NCBI GenBank assembly: GCA_022448485.1
Contig: JAKUUI010000003.1
Coordinates: forward strand, 3,156 to 67,155
DNA: 64,000 bases
Direction of reading: 5' to 3'
Source: SAR324 cluster bacterium
Lineage (GTDB): Bacteria > SAR324 > NAC60-12
A program made the translations under genes and the position numbers. The stretch's first letter is position 1; every line of letters begins with the position of its first letter. Under the pieces are notes generated by a model. It saw nothing but the letters and a program-made list of their open reading frames with translations, did not search any database and was not told the DNA's origin. This document shows, in pieces, positions 15,802 to 31,683 of the stretch.

Positions 15802-17571
15802 ATGGCATTGCGAGTCAACTCAAATATTGCGGCATTGAACGCGCTGAGGCACCTGCAGCAGACAGAGCAGGAATTGGGGAAAAACCTGGAGCGCTTGTCT
15901 TCCGGCCGCAAGATCAATCATGCTGCTGACGGACCAGCATCGCTTGTGATTTCTGAACAGATGAAAACACAGATTTCAGGGCTCGGACAGGCAATTCGCA
16001 ATTCCGAATCATCCATTTCAATGATTCAGACCACAGAAGGTGCATTAAATGAGGTGAGTAACATTTTAATAAATTTACGTCAACTAGCTGTGCATGCTGC
16101 TAATGAGGGTACAAATGACGAAAAAATGCTCCAGGCAGACCAAAATGAGGTTAATAACTTAATCTCTACATTGAGAAATATCGCCAAGAACACTCAGTTT
16201 GGAACAAGAAATTTGCTTGACGGAAGTAATTCAGCTACTGGTGTTGCAATTGGAAACAATCTGGAATTTGTTTTTGCATCTGACGAGGCAAAATCTTCTC
16301 CGTCAAACGGATTTAAAGTTGATATCACACAGGTAGCAACTCGTCCGATGATGATTGCTACACGCCGGTTAAGTCTTGAAGATGTTTCATCATCAGATCC
16401 GAATAATGATTTTTCTTTTGTTATAAATGAAGGGGGTCGCACTGTTTCTGTGGATCTGAAAAACAACAATGATTTACGTGAGACAATCGAAAAATTGGCT
16501 ACCTCTGCAATAAGAAACGGAACTCCGGAAGCAAAGATAAGGACTGAACGTGCCATACAACAGTTGATTGCATTCGAAATGCAGAGACTGGCAGATGAAG
16601 CAAACATGGACCTGGACATTTTTGTTTATCGTCCTGCGGACAATTTGGGACCATTTCTCGAAAACTTCGATACCTTGAATGATACATTGACAGAAATTGC
16701 GAGAACGCTAGGGGCACTAGAAGAGATCAGCGATGTTCTTGGAAGCGCTGACGAGGTGATTGTGATGAGGCACCGTCAATTCGGGAGTGAGCCAAATTTC
16801 ACTGTTTCTTCAACTTTGGAAAACTATTTTGGCGAGAATATACAAGCAAACGAAGCTGTTTTTGCTATTCCGGGACGTGATGTGGAAGGCACAATAGGCG
16901 GATACCCTGAGGTTGACGGAGGAGGTGCAGCCATGGGCAAAGGGCAGTTTCTTACTGGAGCACCCGGCGCAGAAGCAGAGGGAGTCACGGTAAAATACGG
17001 TGAGACAACGGACGATGTAATTTACGAGATTGCTAACCGTTCTGATAATCGGGTATCAGGAACGTTCAAACTGGAGCAGAACAATGATAGCTTAGTTGGT
17101 GAAGATGTGGACGGATTTGTACATGTATCACAAAATTCTCTTGCTTTTCAAATTGGCCCGAATCAAGGACAACTAAGACGAATTTCAGTTGACAGCATGA
17201 GTCCGGAACAGCTCTCAAATGGAGTAGAAAATGACAGCAATTTTCATAGTTTGGCCGAAATTGATGTGCTGGACGCAGATGCAGCTCAAGATGCTTTGCT
17301 GTTGATTGATCAAGCTATTGATGATGTTTCCACTATGCGTGGAAATCTTGGTTCATTCCAGAAAAATGCTTTGGAAGCAAATTTACACGGCTTGCGTGTC
17401 TCAAAGGAAAACTTGACTGCTTCGGAATCTCAGTTAGCAGATACCGACATGGCACAAGAGATGAGTTCATTGGTCAAAAATCAAATATTGCTTGCTTCTG
17501 GAACAGCTATGCTGGCGCAAGCCAATCAGGTCCCGCAGTCCGTTATACAGTTGCTCAATGCAAACGGCTGA
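15802..17571 (+). CDS. fliC: Flagellin (589 aa, large variable central region)
   Basis: Conserved N-terminus (MALRVNSNIAALNALRHLQQTEQELGKNLERLSSGRKINHAADGPA) and C-terminus (DTDMAQEMSSLVKNQILLASGTAMLAQANQVPQSVIQLL), with about 350 aa of non-conserved central sequence. Confidence 0.93.
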   Translation: MALRVNSNIAALNALRHLQQTEQELGKNLERLSSGRKINHAADGPASLVISEQMKTQISGLGQAIRNSESSISMIQTTEGALNEVSNILINLRQLAVHAANEGTNDEKMLQADQNEVNNLISTLRNIAKNTQFGTRNLLDGSNSATGVAIGNNLEFVFASDEAKSSPSNGFKVDITQVATRPMMIATRRLSLEDVSSSDPNNDFSFVINEGGRTVSVDLKNNNDLRETIEKLATSAIRNGTPEAKIRTERAIQQLIAFEMQRLADEANMDLDIFVYRPADNLGPFLENFDTLNDTLTEIARTLGALEEISDVLGSADEVIVMRHRQFGSEPNFTVSSTLENYFGENIQANEAVFAIPGRDVEGTIGGYPEVDGGGAAMGKGQFLTGAPGAEAEGVTVKYGETTDDVIYEIANRSDNRVSGTFKLEQNNDSLVGEDVDGFVHVSQNSLAFQIGPNQGQLRRISVDSMSPEQLSNGVENDSNFHSLAEIDVLDADAAQDALLLIDQAIDDVSTMRGNLGSFQKNALEANLHGLRVSKENLTASESQLADTDMAQEMSSLVKNQILLASGTAMLAQANQVPQSVIQLLNANG

Positions 17572-17710: not shown

Positions 17711-20700
17711 ATGGAACTGTATGCTTCAATAAACGGAACCGCCTTGGCAGAACTGAATCCGAATGCGATCACCGGCTTGGGGTCAAAGCTGAATACAAAG
17801 GAGATCATCGATCGCTTTATGGCTATCGAGCAGCGCCGGATCAAGCCTGTGGAGACTCGTAAAGAACAGAAAGTAAGTGAGCTGGAAGCTTGGGATGCTG
17901 TAAAAATGGAGTTAAAAAAGCTCCAGGGTGTAACCGAAGCACTGAACAAGTATGAAATTTGGGAGGCTCGGAAAGTAGAAACCAGTGATCCGGATGTTGT
18001 GGAACCGCAAGCGCGGAAAGATTCCGTGCCGGGGAGGCATACGATGATAGTGGAATCAGTGGCCTTGTCGCATCAAATAACTTCGCAAGGATTCGAGCGT
18101 GACGACGTCCGGATTGGTACTGGAAAGATCCAGATTCAGGTTGGAGACGATGAAGATGAGACGCCTGTCACAATCAATCTGGCTGAAGGTAAAGATACAC
18201 TAGTTGATTTGAAGCAGGCCATCAACAACTCTGACGCTGGGGTGGAGGCCTATATTGCAAAAACACATGGCGAAAACCCATTTAGGCTGCTTTTAACCAG
18301 CGACACGAAAGGTGAGCAAGGACGAATTAATATAGACGTAAATCTTAAAGGCGGAGAAGTTAGCGGGCCGAGTTATCTAAACACATTTGATAAAACTTCC
18401 ACCTGGAAGGGGCTTCAGGCTAAGGAAGCAAAAAAAGCAGCAGGTGCTGGATTTGGCGGTTCAACAAATATAGTTGAAGTGGGAGGAACGTACTCTGGAG
18501 AAGAAGACAACATCTTTACGTTTACTGTAGAGCGTGCCGGAATGATTCCTTCTGAAGCCGGTGTACTCATTGTCTGGAAGGATATAAACGGCCGAGAGGG
18601 TGAAATAGAGATCAATAAGTTTAATTATGTTCCCGGAAGCCCGCTTGACGTGACGGACGGATTAAAATTGTTGATTAGTGACGGTGAACTTGTAGGTGGT
18701 GACAACTTTACTGTTGATGTTTCTGCAGAAAAATCCGATATGCTGTGGTGGCTGAGCGACGCAGAGCGTGCACCACAAATTTCACAACCATCCGACTGGA
18801 GCAGTAAGGCGTCAGAAGGAGGTGTTCGAGTTACCGGTACATACGATGGATTAGAAGATGATACTATCATTTTTAGGGTGGAGGGCAATGGACAGGTTGG
18901 TGGCCCGAGTCCACTGAAATTGCATTACGAATATTCTGAAACTGGAGAAAAAGGTTCTGTCAATATTGGACACCCTTATCTTGGAGAAGTTGGTAAAGAA
19001 GGACCATTTGATCAGGCTACTGCTTTTGACTCTGAAGATGGTGAAGAACTCTTCGATTTGGAGTTCAGTAAGAAAGGCCGTCGTGACCCAAAGCGTCTGC
19101 CTCTGGGACATGGATTATTTGTAGAAGTGAATCCCAGTGTTTTAAGGGACGGGGATAGTACGGATGTGGATGTAATTGCTCCAACTTCAGAAGATATGTG
19201 GTGGAGCGACGATGAACATCGTGGTGTTTCTAATAAAATTGATGTTCAAGCAAAGTGGATGACCTACGATGAGTATGAAGGAATTGATGAAGACGTAACG
19301 AGAAGTAAACTCGACGTTTCTGCTGGAGTCTGGGGGGCGTCAGGAGGTCTTAGCAATGCTCCCATAGAAATATCCGGTACATTTGAACCGGATATCGCTA
19401 AAACATATACTTTTAGAGTTGAGAAGAGGGGTACTGTCGGTATCACACGTGGCCTACAATTGAGATGGGAAGATACGTTTGGCGGCAACGGTTCTGTAGA
19501 AGTGGGTGAGGGCTATATTCCTGGGACCCCAATATTATTTGATGAGGGATTAAGACTGGCCCTTGGAAAAGGTGGTTTATATCCAGATGATTATTTTACT
19601 ATCTCAACAGAGACTTCAACTGTCAGACTGGCTCAAGATTTAGTCTTACGCCTTGGAGCCACCAGAAGTGGAGAAGGCCTGGAGGTAAGGCGTTCGGAAA
19701 ATGTGGCAAATGATGTGATCCCTGGACTCGATCTGGAGTTTTTTTCGTCCAGTGATGAACCCGTAACTGTATCTGTATTGGGTGACACAGAGGTAGCTAA
19801 AGAGCGCATTCATGATTTTGTAGATGCTTACAATACATTTCAGGCAACTGCAAAAGAAGTGTCAAAGTACGACAAGTCGACAAACACGGCTGCGCCTTTG
19901 TTAAGTGACAGGAATCTGGCTCAGATGGTCAATGAAATTGCGAACACAACAATTGCAACCGTAAGTGGGTTGCCGCAGTCGACTAATATGCTTTTTTCTA
20001 TTGGCCTGAAAATCGATGATAGAGGCCAGATGTCTATTGAAGAGAAAAAATTAAACGAAAAGATAGTTGATGCTTTTTCTGATGTTGCTAATTTATTCCG
20101 GAGTCATGGAAAAACAGATAATCCCGGAGTAAGTTTTCTGGGAATGACTGAAAAAACTAGGGTCAATCCCAGCGGTTACCAAGTGGACGTCTCGAATGCT
20201 GCTGAACGCGGATTCTATTTGGGAACTCCACTCCCCGGAATTATAAGAGTTGATGATACAAACAATGTTTTAATTATTAAAAATAACGGCAGGGTATCTG
20301 ATCCGATTGAATTGCGCAAGGACAACTATACTCTCGGCAGTCTGGCCAAAACCATCCAGAACCGTTTGATGGAAGACAAAGTTTTGGGACGCCGTAGATT
20401 ACAGGTTCGTGAAGAAGAAGGAAGGCTGATGATAATTTCGGGGACTTATGGAAGCAGCAGTACAATTGAGGTGGAGCCCGGCCCAGATAAGGAACTCAGC
20501 GGTTTGGGGCTGACAGATGGTGTCAGCACTCCGGGAGAGGATGTTGCAGGATCAATCGGGAATGTGGAAGCAACAGGCAGAGGACAATTGCTTATGGGAG
20601 CGGAAGATTCCAATGCTGACGGTTTGAGATTGTTCGTGACACTTAGCGAAGACGACCTGGTTAAGGAACAAGAGGCTACTGTGAATATTTCCAAAGGTGT

Positions 20701-20959
20701 AGCTGTTAAATTAGGTCAGAAACTTGATAAATTGAATGATCCTCTGGATGGTAATGTCAAGCGGGCTACAGATGATATAACTGGACAAATGAGTAGTTTT
20801 GAGGAGCAAATAAGCCGCTTAAACGAACGGGCCGATACTAAGCGTTCAAGGTTGCAGAGTAAATTTGCAAAACTGGACAGCACTATGGGAAGATTAAAAT
20901 CCCAACAAAACTATATCAACCAGCAACTCTCCGCAATGAGCGGAGCTAATAAGTCCTAA
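17711..20959 (+). CDS. fliD: Flagellar filament cap protein FliD (HAP2), unusually long (1082 aa)
   Basis: FliD-type N-terminus (ITGLGSKLNTKEIIDRFMAIEQRRIKPVETRKEQKVSELEAW) and C-terminus (RLNERADTKRSRLQSKFAKLDSTMGRLKSQQNYINQQL). Gene order is flagellin-fliD-fliS. The middle of the protein contains three tandem repeats. Confidence 0.88.
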   Translation: MELYASINGTALAELNPNAITGLGSKLNTKEIIDRFMAIEQRRIKPVETRKEQKVSELEAWDAVKMELKKLQGVTEALNKYEIWEARKVETSDPDVVEPQARKDSVPGRHTMIVESVALSHQITSQGFERDDVRIGTGKIQIQVGDDEDETPVTINLAEGKDTLVDLKQAINNSDAGVEAYIAKTHGENPFRLLLTSDTKGEQGRINIDVNLKGGEVSGPSYLNTFDKTSTWKGLQAKEAKKAAGAGFGGSTNIVEVGGTYSGEEDNIFTFTVERAGMIPSEAGVLIVWKDINGREGEIEINKFNYVPGSPLDVTDGLKLLISDGELVGGDNFTVDVSAEKSDMLWWLSDAERAPQISQPSDWSSKASEGGVRVTGTYDGLEDDTIIFRVEGNGQVGGPSPLKLHYEYSETGEKGSVNIGHPYLGEVGKEGPFDQATAFDSEDGEELFDLEFSKKGRRDPKRLPLGHGLFVEVNPSVLRDGDSTDVDVIAPTSEDMWWSDDEHRGVSNKIDVQAKWMTYDEYEGIDEDVTRSKLDVSAGVWGASGGLSNAPIEISGTFEPDIAKTYTFRVEKRGTVGITRGLQLRWEDTFGGNGSVEVGEGYIPGTPILFDEGLRLALGKGGLYPDDYFTISTETSTVRLAQDLVLRLGATRSGEGLEVRRSENVANDVIPGLDLEFFSSSDEPVTVSVLGDTEVAKERIHDFVDAYNTFQATAKEVSKYDKSTNTAAPLLSDRNLAQMVNEIANTTIATVSGLPQSTNMLFSIGLKIDDRGQMSIEEKKLNEKIVDAFSDVANLFRSHGKTDNPGVSFLGMTEKTRVNPSGYQVDVSNAAERGFYLGTPLPGIIRVDDTNNVLIIKNNGRVSDPIELRKDNYTLGSLAKTIQNRLMEDKVLGRRRLQVREEEGRLMIISGTYGSSSTIEVEPGPDKELSGLGLTDGVSTPGEDVAGSIGNVEATGRGQLLMGAEDSNADGLRLFVTLSEDDLVKEQEATVNISKGVAVKLGQKLDKLNDPLDGNVKRATDDITGQMSSFEEQISRLNERADTKRSRLQSKFAKLDSTMGRLKSQQNYINQQLSAMSGANKS

Positions 20960-20981: not shown

Positions 20982-21449
20982 ATGAGTACCTATGGTAACT
21001 ACCAGAATGCCTATAAAAAGGCCTCTGTCAACACACTTGATCAAAATAAACTGATCATTATGCTCTATGATGGAGCCATAAAGAATGCCAGTTTTGCTGT
21101 TGAGCACATGAAATCAGAGGAAATAGAGAAGGTCCATGATTGTTTAATAAAAACTAAGAACATTGTGACCGAACTAATGGCAACCCTGAATATGGATCAT
21201 GGAGGTGATATCGCAAAAAATCTTCAGTCACTCTATAGCTACATGTTTAGCCAGCTGATTGAGGCAAACATGGAAAAAAAGCCTGAACCAGTTATTGTCG
21301 TAATAGATTTACTCAAGGAGTTGCGGGCGGCCTGGGTGCAAATTAATTCAAAAAAGAAACCAGGTGCAACAAAACAAAATGCTACTACACAAGGCATGAT
21401 GCAAAATAATCAGGAGAAAGCCGAGAAGCATATTAATGTGACGGGATAA
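20982..21449 (+). CDS. fliS: Flagellar export chaperone FliS
   Basis: 155 aa. YQNAYKKASVNTLDQNKLIIMLYDGAIK...LQSLYSYMFSQLIEAN is the FliS pattern. It lies directly after fliD. Confidence 0.88.
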   Translation: MSTYGNYQNAYKKASVNTLDQNKLIIMLYDGAIKNASFAVEHMKSEEIEKVHDCLIKTKNIVTELMATLNMDHGGDIAKNLQSLYSYMFSQLIEANMEKKPEPVIVVIDLLKELRAAWVQINSKKKPGATKQNATTQGMMQNNQEKAEKHINVTG

Positions 21450-29061: not shown

Positions 29062-30024
29062 ATGTCATTAAAAATCAATCATAATATTGAGTCCATGGTT
29101 GCACATCGCAACCTGTTAATGAACGACCGTGCGCTTTCAAAGTCACTTGAAAGACTGGCTTCGGGACAGAAAGTCAACCGGGCAGCCGATGATCCGGCAG
29201 CTTTGGTGATTTCTGAACATATGCGTGCCCAGGTTAGCGGGATGCAACAGGCAATCAAGAATAACGAAATTGCCATTTCACTCGTTCAAACTGCTGAAGG
29301 CTCTATGAATGAAATCTCGAATATGCTGGTTGGCCTTCGTCAGCGAGCAATTTCTGCAGCAAACGTTGGTGCTAGTGACCAGTCAATGATTGAAGCCAAT
29401 CAGGCTGAAATTGAAAATGCGCTTGCATCAATTGATCGTCTTGTGACTACTACACAGTTCGGACATTACAAACTTCTGGACGGAACAAATGCTTCGCGAA
29501 CCGAGATCAAATTTAGGACTGATTCGGATGGAGAATTTGTGTTAGACGGCGACGATAACAAGATTATAGAGTCAAAATCAACCGTAGAAGGACTCCGTTT
29601 TCATGTTGGACCTAATGCAGATCACCAGGCTTCAGTTTCTATTCGAAACATGCACACAAATCAGCTTGGTCGGGTTGCAGAGGGTCAAAACAAAAGCAGC
29701 TTTGCATCGCTTGCTGATATTGATGTGCGCAATGAGCAAGGTGCTCAGGATGCACTTGCTATAATTGATCAGGCGCTTACAGAGGTTGCTACAGTTCGCG
29801 GAGAAGTAGGTGCTTTCCAGAGTCAAACACTGGAAACCAATCTCACCAGCTTGCAGATTGCATCAGAAAATATGACTGCTGCTGAATCCACTCTTCGTGA
29901 CACTGATATGGCTCAGGAACTGGCGACATTTACTCGTAACCAGATCATGAGTCAATCAGCAACTGCGCAGTTGGCTCAGGCCAATGCACTGCCGCAAAAC
30001 GTATTGCGGTTATTAAACAGCTAG
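29062..30024 (+). CDS. Flagellin (320 aa, short central region)
   Basis: N-terminus MSLKINHNIESMVAHRNLLMNDRALSKSLERLASGQKVNRAADDPAALVISE and C-terminus DTDMAQELATFTRNQIMSQSATAQLAQANALPQNVLRLLNS. A strong SD (AAGGAG) is 6 nt upstream, and the stop codon is TAG. Confidence 0.93.
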   Translation: MSLKINHNIESMVAHRNLLMNDRALSKSLERLASGQKVNRAADDPAALVISEHMRAQVSGMQQAIKNNEIAISLVQTAEGSMNEISNMLVGLRQRAISAANVGASDQSMIEANQAEIENALASIDRLVTTTQFGHYKLLDGTNASRTEIKFRTDSDGEFVLDGDDNKIIESKSTVEGLRFHVGPNADHQASVSIRNMHTNQLGRVAEGQNKSSFASLADIDVRNEQGAQDALAIIDQALTEVATVRGEVGAFQSQTLETNLTSLQIASENMTAAESTLRDTDMAQELATFTRNQIMSQSATAQLAQANALPQNVLRLLNS

Positions 30025-30216: not shown

Positions 30217-31683
30217 ATGCCGTTGGGGATGAAACACAACATCGTATCTATCAACGCGTTAAATCACCTGGCAGAAGCACAAAATGAACTGTACGGCTCA
30301 TTGAGACGCTTATCTTCAGGACAAAGGATCAACAGTGGAGCAGATGACCCGGCTGGTCTGGTTATTTCTGAGGGTCTTCGTGCTCAGATTGCCAGTGTAC
30401 AGCAAGCTCTGCAAAATACTGAGTTTTCCCTGTCTCTGGTCCAGACCGCTGAAGGTGCTTTGGCAGAAGTGAACAATTTGCTGATTGAAATGCGTCAATT
30501 AGCGACAACTGCTGCAAATGAGGGTGCAACCGATTATAGTGCAATGTTGGCATTGCAGTTTCAGATTCGCACAGCAATCGATGGAATTGACCGTGTTTCA
30601 CGGTTTACTCGCTTCGGCAATACAAATCTGCTGGACGGTAGTCATGGAACTACAGGAATGGGAGGAAATGAAGAACTTGTTTTTCTTAAAGCATCATCGA
30701 AAACAATCTCATCTCCGCTCAGTGGCTATGAAGTGGATATTACCGAATTGCCTAAGAGGGCAAATCTGACAGAAGACCTTGATGATGATGGTGCATCCGG
30801 ATTACAAATCACATTAGAAGAAGAAGACGGAGCTATAATCAGAGTCAGAAATCCAGAAGTGGGGACAGCAGAGGGTTTTGCAAACCGCCTGCAAGAAGCT
30901 GCTTTTGAAGCAAACATGAACTTGGACATACTCTTTGATGTAGATGAAGAAGAGCTTACAATTGAGCATCGGGAATATGGACTTGCCAAAGGATTCACTG
31001 TCACGGGTAACAAGGATGGAGTAATTGTGGAAGATGCTTTTGAACCCAAATTATTTTTGGGAAGGGATATAGAGGGAACCATAAATGATGAGCCTGCTGA
31101 AGGTGATGGATTGGTCCTTACAGGAGATTTAAATAACGAGAATACAAGTGGTTTGAGTGTAGCTTTTTTAGGCAACGATACCGGTAATGCCGGATCCGTA
31201 ACTGTTGCGCAAAATGCTCTTAAATTTCAAATAGGACCAAGTGCGGATGAAAATATTCTGATCGCACTGAATAGCACTCATTCTACAGTCCTGGGAAGAG
31301 GTGTGGATAATAAGAGTGGTTTCGACAATTTGTCCCAAATCAGGCTCACATCTGCTCAAGAGGCCATCGACGCAATTCGTCTTGTAGATGAGGCTCTTGA
31401 TCAATTATTATCGATGCGTAGCCAACTCGGTTCTGTACAAAAACACACGCTTGAAACAAATATTTCAGTGCTCCAGTCCACTGCAGAAAATTTAACTGCA
31501 GCTGAATCCAGCGTCCGGGACACAGATATGGCAATGGAGATGGTCAATTTTACAAAAAACCAAATCATAACAGAAAGTGCCGCCGCGGCGGTCGCTCAGG
31601 CCAATCAGACGGCTGCTCGTGTTTTGAGGATCTTGTTTAACAATAATGCGAGTTATTACTGGTCATCTTCCACAAACCATTGA
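30217..31683 (+). CDS. Flagellin (488 aa) with an atypical C-terminal extension
   Basis: N-terminus NALNHLAEAQNELYGSLRRLSSGQRINSGADDPAGLVISE and C-terminus DTDMAMEMVNFTKNQIITESAAAAVAQANQTAARVLRIL, followed by 12 extra residues (FNNNASYYWSSSTNH). Confidence 0.9.
   Translation: MPLGMKHNIVSINALNHLAEAQNELYGSLRRLSSGQRINSGADDPAGLVISEGLRAQIASVQQALQNTEFSLSLVQTAEGALAEVNNLLIEMRQLATTAANEGATDYSAMLALQFQIRTAIDGIDRVSRFTRFGNTNLLDGSHGTTGMGGNEELVFLKASSKTISSPLSGYEVDITELPKRANLTEDLDDDGASGLQITLEEEDGAIIRVRNPEVGTAEGFANRLQEAAFEANMNLDILFDVDEEELTIEHREYGLAKGFTVTGNKDGVIVEDAFEPKLFLGRDIEGTINDEPAEGDGLVLTGDLNNENTSGLSVAFLGNDTGNAGSVTVAQNALKFQIGPSADENILIALNSTHSTVLGRGVDNKSGFDNLSQIRLTSAQEAIDAIRLVDEALDQLLSMRSQLGSVQKHTLETNISVLQSTAENLTAAESSVRDTDMAMEMVNFTKNQIITESAAAAVAQANQTAARVLRILFNNNASYYWSSSTNH

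Follow-up and report, generated by a model that had tools for sequence, protein, structure and literature searches.

The filament cap protein FliD of the SAR324 bacteria carries three diverged copies of one uncharacterised all-beta domain, which are inserted in its head and kept in fixed positions throughout the phylum. The protein described here is encoded by an open reading frame (ORF) of 1082 amino acids (aa) in contig JAKUUI010000003.1 of a SAR324 cluster bacterium (assembly GCA_022448485.1). The stretch analysed is composed of 64,000 nucleotides of this contig (positions 3,156 to 67,155) and is called the window; all coordinates below are those of the window. FliD is usually regarded as a compact, uniform assembly chaperone. 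SAR324 is uncultured and, in the dark ocean, one of the bacterial groups of highest abundance. The best explanation of the long protein has three parts, namely that it is a FliD, that its extra domain was triplicated long ago, and that the three copies form a structural crown on the cap. The identity of the protein and the evolutionary part, taken jointly, are held with near certainty, and the explanation as a whole is favoured, if not strongly.

Three copies of one domain in the head of FliD

The protein is made up of the parts listed here, all encoded on the forward strand. The repeats are called R1, R2, and R3. Structures predicted with AlphaFold2 (AF2) are given with their predicted local distance difference test (pLDDT), and HMM stands for hidden Markov model.

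17711 to 18415, + strand: FliD N-terminal part, aa 1-235, with the D0/D1 helices, the first part of D2, and D3 (FliD_N; 5h5w, 5xlj, 6kty, and 5h5t align to aa 88-241)
18458 to 18745, + strand: repeat R1, aa 250-345, predicted all-beta (BLASTP; independent HMM; AF2 core pLDDT ~85-92)
18746 to 18808, + strand: linker 1, aa 346-366, which bears WW..(A/E)R and, further on at aa 363, a conserved W (alignment; short helices in AF2, pLDDT ~84-87)
18809 to 19195, + strand: repeat R2, aa 367-495, a further copy of the domain, interrupted by an insertion (BLASTP; independent HMM, in two pieces)
18980 to 19084, + strand: 35-aa acidic hairpin insertion in R2, aa 424-458 (SAR324 family f1 only)
19196 to 19348, + strand: linker 2, aa 496-546, with a second WW..R motif, a conserved W, and then a variable acidic stretch (alignment)
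19349 to 19630, + strand: repeat R3, aa 547-640, continuing straight into the D2 return strand (BLASTP; independent HMM)
19631 to 20110, + strand: second part of D2 and C-terminal part of D1, aa 641-800 (FliD_C at aa 656-801; PDB 5fhy at aa 655-797)
20111 to 20710, + strand: second insert, aa 801-1000, within the FliD_C region, with a Flagellin_IN-like block; not a repeat copy
20711 to 20959, + strand: C-terminal D0 helix, aa 1001-1082, and stop codon (PDB 5gna_B, a FliD C-terminal peptide, at aa 1013-1077)

The repeats are recovered by two kinds of comparison. In pairwise BLASTP searches, R1 matches R3 with E = 4e-15 (33% identity over 88 aa), R1 matches R2 with E = 1e-6, and R2 matches R3 with E = 3e-6. 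The second comparison used an HMM of 191 domain copies, all taken from proteins that are not closely related to the FliD of the window, and is thus a non-circular test. This model recovers R1 with E = 2.5e-24 (aa 250-342) and R3 with E = 4e-24 (aa 547-637). R2 is found in two pieces, aa 367-423 (E = 4e-11) and aa 442-493 (E = 6e-4), that are separated by the 35-aa insertion. R1, R2, and R3 are real, diverged copies of a single domain of ~95 aa. No repeat is visible at the DNA level within fliD, and the duplication is therefore old.

Both comparisons bear out the three tandem repeats proposed in the initial annotation, whose boundaries were off by a few residues only. It had placed the repeat region at 18473-19630, which corresponds to aa 255-640 and falls exactly between D3 and the return to D2. 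Each of the motifs it listed can be recognised in the three-way alignment: GT[YF]xG..D..F.V, PG[ST]P, GL.L, D.FT, and, behind R1 and R2, the WW tail.

The insertion point is given by the solved head structures. Head fragments in the PDB reach to about aa 241, and the alignment is taken up again by 5fhy from aa 655. Judged by this alignment, R1 to R3 follow head domain D3 and precede the return strand of D2. The 35-aa insertion within R2 is found in all genomes of family f1 and is a gap in 11 of the 11 sequences from outside this family (alignment A3). AF2 models it as two short strands, a hairpin, flanked by loops of low pLDDT.

Conservation across the SAR324 phylum

The closest proteins are FliDs from metagenome-assembled genomes (MAGs) named 'SAR324 cluster bacterium'. 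Those that are complete have 1038-1093 aa, with 82-99% identity in the repeat region, and one 99%-identity cluster of such FliDs has 243 member sequences. Within the SAR324 phylum, 77 of 88 genomes have a match to the window FliD, with identities down to ~31%. Complete fliD frames of 1016-1116 aa are found in every family with a match.

Domain copies were counted by scanning the repeat profile over FliD frames, including 20 additional diverse loci, for a sample of 29 FliDs from seven SAR324 families. All 29 have exactly three copies. In a tree of the copies, each of R1, R2, and R3 is gathered in a clade of its own, supported by values of 99, 94, and 84, respectively. These orthologous clades therefore show a single triplication before the sampled SAR324 families diverged, with no change in copy number since. 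A recent or strain-variable expansion of the repeats is ruled out by the missing DNA repeat, the constant count, and the orthologous clades. Variation of the repeat number between strains, which had been suggested for survey, is absent in the SAR324 sample.

The length of the ORF is unusual and the assembly is fragmented, with 246 contigs, so a chimera or fusion from mis-assembly or sequencing error was also considered. However, the same 1016-1116-aa frame is present in dozens of independent SAR324 genomes and in metagenome contigs. It is uninterrupted in all 29 sampled genomes across the phylum, each time with three copies, and the large 99%-identity cluster speaks against an artefact as well. 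The fusion caused by a sequencing error that the first description of the gene had allowed for is refuted by these comparative data, and an artefact is given practically no credence.

Constraint on each region was expressed as the mean identity to the window protein, within the genus and against other families.

R1: 81% within the genus, 36% against other families
R2: 89% within the genus, 23% against other families
R3: 83% within the genus, 41% against other families
FliD N- and C-terminal core: 85-90% within the genus, 34-41% against other families
Linker 1: 92% within the genus, 39% against other families
Linker 2: 70% within the genus, 18% against other families

By this measure the repeats appear to be constrained roughly as strongly as the FliD core, each copy in its own position. 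Linker 2 is the least conserved segment and the sole fast-evolving piece. In the linkers, both WW pairs and the later single W residues are unchanged in 30 of 30 aligned SAR324 FliDs. Invariance in this alignment is limited to G, Y, W, D, F, S, and L; a conserved combination of His, Cys, or acidic residues that would hint at catalysis is lacking. Cys is absent from the whole of the 1082-aa protein.

Outer domains of flagellar proteins are often hypervariable. The repeats could accordingly be viewed as a fast-evolving layer, a variable decoy or site of antigenic variation protecting the cap against phages, grazers, or antibodies, and the variable linker 2 would suit such a layer. R1 to R3 are nevertheless as conserved as the core, and their copies are fixed at three and orthologous throughout the phylum. 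From the per-region identities it follows that the repeats are not a hypervariable surface region, and a decoy is considered very unlikely.

Nature of the repeat domain

The domain has no counterpart in the family databases searched. No Pfam family matches aa 240-650 of the window FliD, even at E <= 0.1, and no NCBIfam model covers the repeat domain. When 53 diverse copies were searched singly against Pfam, no consistent family was found; FlgD_ig appeared in 5 of the 53, with a best E of 0.0025. Searches of PDB sequences with the single protein or with a profile of the 53 copies gave nothing significant. The best match, a collagenase (E = 0.004), is limited to two brief and weak segments close to the beginning of the profile. 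The FlgD_ig traces and the collagenase/PPC-like strand-pair traces are treated as chance or as a generic beta-sandwich signal. Known families of extracellular beta-sandwiches, i.e., Big/Ig-like, FlgD_ig, PKD, and PPC/collagen-binding, gave no usable match through their Pfam models or solved members.

Structure prediction was run on two segments. For R1 alone, with a small alignment, AF2 predicts an all-beta domain with a core pLDDT of ~88, and only one of the five models is confident. For aa 236-650, with an alignment of 30 orthologues, the five models are concordant, with a mean pLDDT of 73-77 and domain cores at ~85-92. They contain three all-beta domains of ~7-9 strands each, and short helices form in the WW linkers.

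In Helicobacter pylori, the extra head domains of FliD are described as folding like D2 and D3 (PMC8306008). The SAR324 repeats might likewise be highly diverged duplicates of the protein's own D2/D3 and no separate family. A weak, partial match of the repeat HMM (E = 0.01) near the Flagellin_IN-like block of a sister FliD is in line with such an origin. The profile comparison speaks against it. With hhalign, a profile of 82 repeat copies matches the N part of FliD (D1-D3) with a probability of 3.0% (E = 0.015) and the C part with 0.3%. Foldseek returned no FliD chain for either AF2 model, though its library holds many FliD head structures, and the domain is predicted to be all-beta. Duplication of D2/D3 is held to be unlikely. 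Going by sequence comparisons and by predicted models searched against a structure library smaller than AlphaFold DB, the repeat domain is uncharacterised and is no recognisable copy of D2 or D3. It had been called uncharacterised from the start, and this description stands after the Pfam, NCBIfam, and PDB searches and the structure prediction. Known FliD head folds, which were named at the outset as a possible explanation of the repeats, are not recovered by hhalign or Foldseek.

The fliD gene and its neighbours

The window contains a segment of a flagellar filament operon in which flagellin, fliD, and fliS are all on the + strand.

15802 to 17571, + strand: flagellin gene (589 aa), directly upstream of fliD (Pfam Flagellin_N 122 bits, Flagellin_C 71.6 bits)
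17711 to 20959, + strand: fliD, filament cap protein, 1082 aa (ORF; Pfam; solved FliD chains)
20982 to 21449, + strand: fliS, flagellin export chaperone, 155 aa (Pfam FliS 129.6 bits)

The 1082-aa ORF contains FliD_N (PF02465) at aa 25-121, with 51.3 bits against a gathering cut-off of 24.8. FliD_C (PF07195) reaches 121.9 bits in total against a cut-off of 25.4, and it is split in two stretches, the best of which is aa 656-801. Solved FliD chains match only aa 21-241 (D0/D1, first part of D2, and D3), aa 655-797 (D2 return and D1), and aa 1013-1077 (C-terminal helix). Chains 5h5v, 5h5w, 5xlj, 6kty, and 5fhy cover aa 57-241 and 655-797 at E = 1e-14 to 6e-7, which makes D2-D3 homologous to the solved heads. 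Because of the Pfam domains, the gene order flagellin-fliD-fliS, and the alignment to solved chains, the ORF is identified as FliD, as the initial annotation had it; at the level of sequence it is a genuine filament cap protein of a SAR324 bacterium. The NCBIfam equivalog models for FliD do not reach their curated cut-offs, and the best of them, NF005955, scores 161.7 bits against 387. Models of the NF005955 type are built on short FliDs, and the shortfall reflects divergence and inserts rather than another family.

The second insert (aa 801-1000) lies between the first FliD_C stretch (aa 656-801) and the C-terminal helix (aa 1013-1077). It contains a Flagellin_IN-like block, GEDVAGSIGNVEATGRGQLL, and PF07196 is precomputed for two near relatives of the window FliD. 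The insert matches the central part of ORFs of 480-540 aa in many SAR324 genomes (E = 1e-8 to 1e-13). These ORFs are probably flagellins. The match to the genome's own 488-aa flagellin is weak (E = 0.08). FliDs of 773 aa with a single repeat copy also carry the second insert, and it is therefore part of the base architecture of this FliD subfamily. The unusual length of the SAR324 protein had been put down to the triplicated domain. The three copies and their linkers do add ~400 aa, and the second insert, which went unmentioned, contributes a further ~200 aa. A cryptic fourth repeat copy in this insert was considered and rejected; there is one marginal HMM match (E = 0.01, in a sister genome), and hhalign lends it no support.

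Three flagellin paralogues of different lengths are encoded in the window, at 15802-17571 (589 aa), 29062-30024 (320 aa), and 30217-31683 (488 aa). The 320- and 488-aa genes are located ~7.6 kb away from fliD and fliS, and the genes in between are non-flagellar, including an M24 peptidase and a GNAT acetyltransferase. A sister genome of the same genus (G027:C43) has two fliD genes, at 79913-83158 and 85268-88375, with frames of 1102 and 1043 aa. The two are ~2 kb apart on one contig, and each is 84% identical to the window FliD.

The domain family beyond SAR324

A profile search that covered 1.84 billion representative proteins, clustered at 50% identity, returned 808 clusters at E <= 1e-3, of which 193 remain at E <= 1e-10. 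The copies belong to a large unannotated family whose members are mainly attached to the outer regions of axial proteins that leave the cell by the flagellar channel (FliD, FlgK, and flagellin). FliD carriers span 1-5 copies, among them proteins with one copy (~770-785 aa), two (~830-885 aa), three (~1020-1085 aa), or four (992 aa). FlgK carriers are ~650 aa long, with the domain at about aa 410-510, and a few flagellin-like proteins also carry it. The 63 carriers that were not recognised as FliD by BLASTP include 21 with a Flagellin_IN motif, 15 FlgK proteins, 4-5 flagellins, and 3 proteins with LamG. A minority of carriers are non-flagellar surface proteins, some of them with CARDB/PKD, CBM96, or LamG domains. 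In the window's own genome, the domain is found in FliD only, in its three copies.

The single-copy form is represented by loci L007 and L008 from two MAGs. Each encodes a FliD of 773-777 aa with the domain at the same D3/D2 site, and this form looks ancestral.

Long arrays are found in hypothetical proteins. P0122, a 2981-aa protein of a Candidatus Omnitrophota MAG that is grouped with the non-flagellar surface proteins, has nine tandem copies at aa 1578-2525 and no Pfam or NCBIfam match anywhere. P0129 and P0140 (Planctomycetota) and P0135 are 877-980 aa long and have 4-5 copies, with only weak matches to FliD_C, Flagellin_IN, or FlgL-like models. These three are probably very divergent axial cap or junction proteins. 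In planctomycete-type proteins the copies cluster within each protein, and the domain was therefore amplified independently in those lineages. By the same clustering, this amplification would also be more recent than that in SAR324.

A proposed structural crown on the filament cap

FliD caps are pentameric in solved filament-bound structures, and the D2-D3 head forms the distal plate. A pentamer of the SAR324 protein would carry 15 repeat domains, an added mass of ~225 kDa, on the distal outward face of this plate, where they may form a fixed crown. The crown would be a structural extension of the cap head, enlarging and stiffening the lid over a filament whose flagellins are large (589 and 488 aa). 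A defined superstructure, rather than beads on a string, is suggested by the invariant WW linkers together with the moderate predicted template modelling score (pTM, 0.57). The crown is probably neither a catalytic nor a hypervariable module. The initial annotation had named the insert a candidate surface module. The D3/D2 insertion point fits that description, but a hypervariable surface is not what the repeats present. The structural function is rated as about as likely as not.

The main alternative is a tip adhesin. In this explanation, glycans, polymers, or particles are bound by the three domains, a conserved module with which SAR324 would attach to marine particles and surfaces. The module would face outward in the head, and a conserved ligand would be compatible with the strong purifying selection. 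Non-flagellar surface proteins contain the domain too, beside CARDB/PKD, CBM96, and LamG, and there are published precedents in D4 of Campylobacter jejuni (PMC7316729) and D4/D5 of H. pylori (PMC8306008). However, no lectin or carbohydrate-binding module family matches the domain, and its invariant residues look structural (Gly, buried aromatics, turn Asp). Most carriers are axial proteins, including FlgK at the hook-filament junction, where tip adhesion would make no sense. An adhesin is possible, though not probable.

Several points weigh against the structural crown. The relative arrangement of the three domains (pTM 0.57) and their place on the cap are tentative. The link between cap size and flagellin size amounts to two anecdotes, a 589-aa flagellin with three copies here and 482-aa flagellins with one copy in L008. 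FliD alone carries the domain in this genome, so FlgK and flagellin were not enlarged along with it by the same domain. The strong conservation of the repeats fits a conserved ligand-binding role just as well. The crown function is inferred only.

A bolder proposal can also be made. The domain would be an undescribed fold, specialised for addition to proteins (FliD, FlgK, and flagellin) that pass unfolded through the type III channel of the flagellum. The conserved 15-domain crown of SAR324, built from position-specific copies with rigid WW linkers, would be an organ for tip attachment or sensing, a second flagellar function beyond swimming. This proposal is speculative and is considered rather improbable.

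The whole SAR324 phylum retains a cap more than twice the usual size, with extra domains that have kept their positions since before the families diverged. As the three domains are held in place phylum-wide, it can be argued that they do something. A single structure of the domain would annotate many flagellar proteins at once (cap, FlgK, and flagellins), and it could reveal what makes a domain suitable for passage through the narrow channel of the flagellum on export. In practical terms the gain is modest: long FliD and FlgK proteins could be annotated better, and structural studies would have a well-defined target.

Comparison with known flagellar caps

Canonical FliD/HAP2 caps, e.g., those of E. 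coli (5H5V), Pseudomonas (5FHY), and Salmonella (9GNZ), share the N- and C-terminal helices, D1, and D2-D3 with the SAR324 protein, as well as the gene order flagellin-fliD-fliS. They differ in being chains of 380-470 aa that have neither the D3/D2 insert nor the insert in the C-terminal region.

The closest architecture is that of the single-copy FliDs, i.e., the 773-777-aa proteins of L007 and L008 and the ~770-785-aa clusters P0170, P0175, and P0181. They have the same general build, with the second insert and the domain at the D3/D2 site. They carry one copy where SAR324 carries three, and the WW linkers are absent. The planctomycete proteins P0129 and P0140 also have tandem arrays (4-5 copies) of this family in flagellar axial-type proteins with weak FliD- or FlgL-like character. 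Their copies group within each protein and, unlike those of SAR324, were amplified independently.

Extra head domains in FliD are known from two other species. The FliD of H. pylori is 685 aa long and has additional head domains D4 and D5, with folds reported to be similar to D2/D3 and a link to host interaction (PMC8306008). As in SAR324, surface-exposed head domains beyond D2/D3 lengthen the protein. H. pylori has two D2/D3-like domains, whereas SAR324 has three all-beta paralogues without detectable likeness to D2/D3, joined by conserved WW linkers. The SAR324 protein also has the ~200-aa insert in its C-terminal region and reaches 1082 aa in total. Held against the H. pylori type, it shares the location of the extra domains in the head and, within the limits of predicted models, differs from it in their fold and ancestry. 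In C. jejuni, the cap solved by cryo-electron microscopy has an extra, outward, flexible domain D4 that has been suggested as the basis of heparin binding (PMC7316729). Here too an additional domain points outward from the cap head and a role in adhesion is postulated. C. jejuni differs in having a single extra domain and in being a host-associated pathogen, and the sequence and fold searches gave no match between it and the SAR324 repeat.

Literature searches on long or repeat-bearing FliDs and on SAR324 flagella turned up nothing on the architecture described here. That FliD heads can bear extra domains is already known from D4/D5 of H. pylori and D4 of C. jejuni. What is new in SAR324 is the identity of the added domain, a member of an unannotated family that matches no solved fold, its presence in three position-specific copies with WW linkers, and its fixation across a whole, abundant marine phylum.

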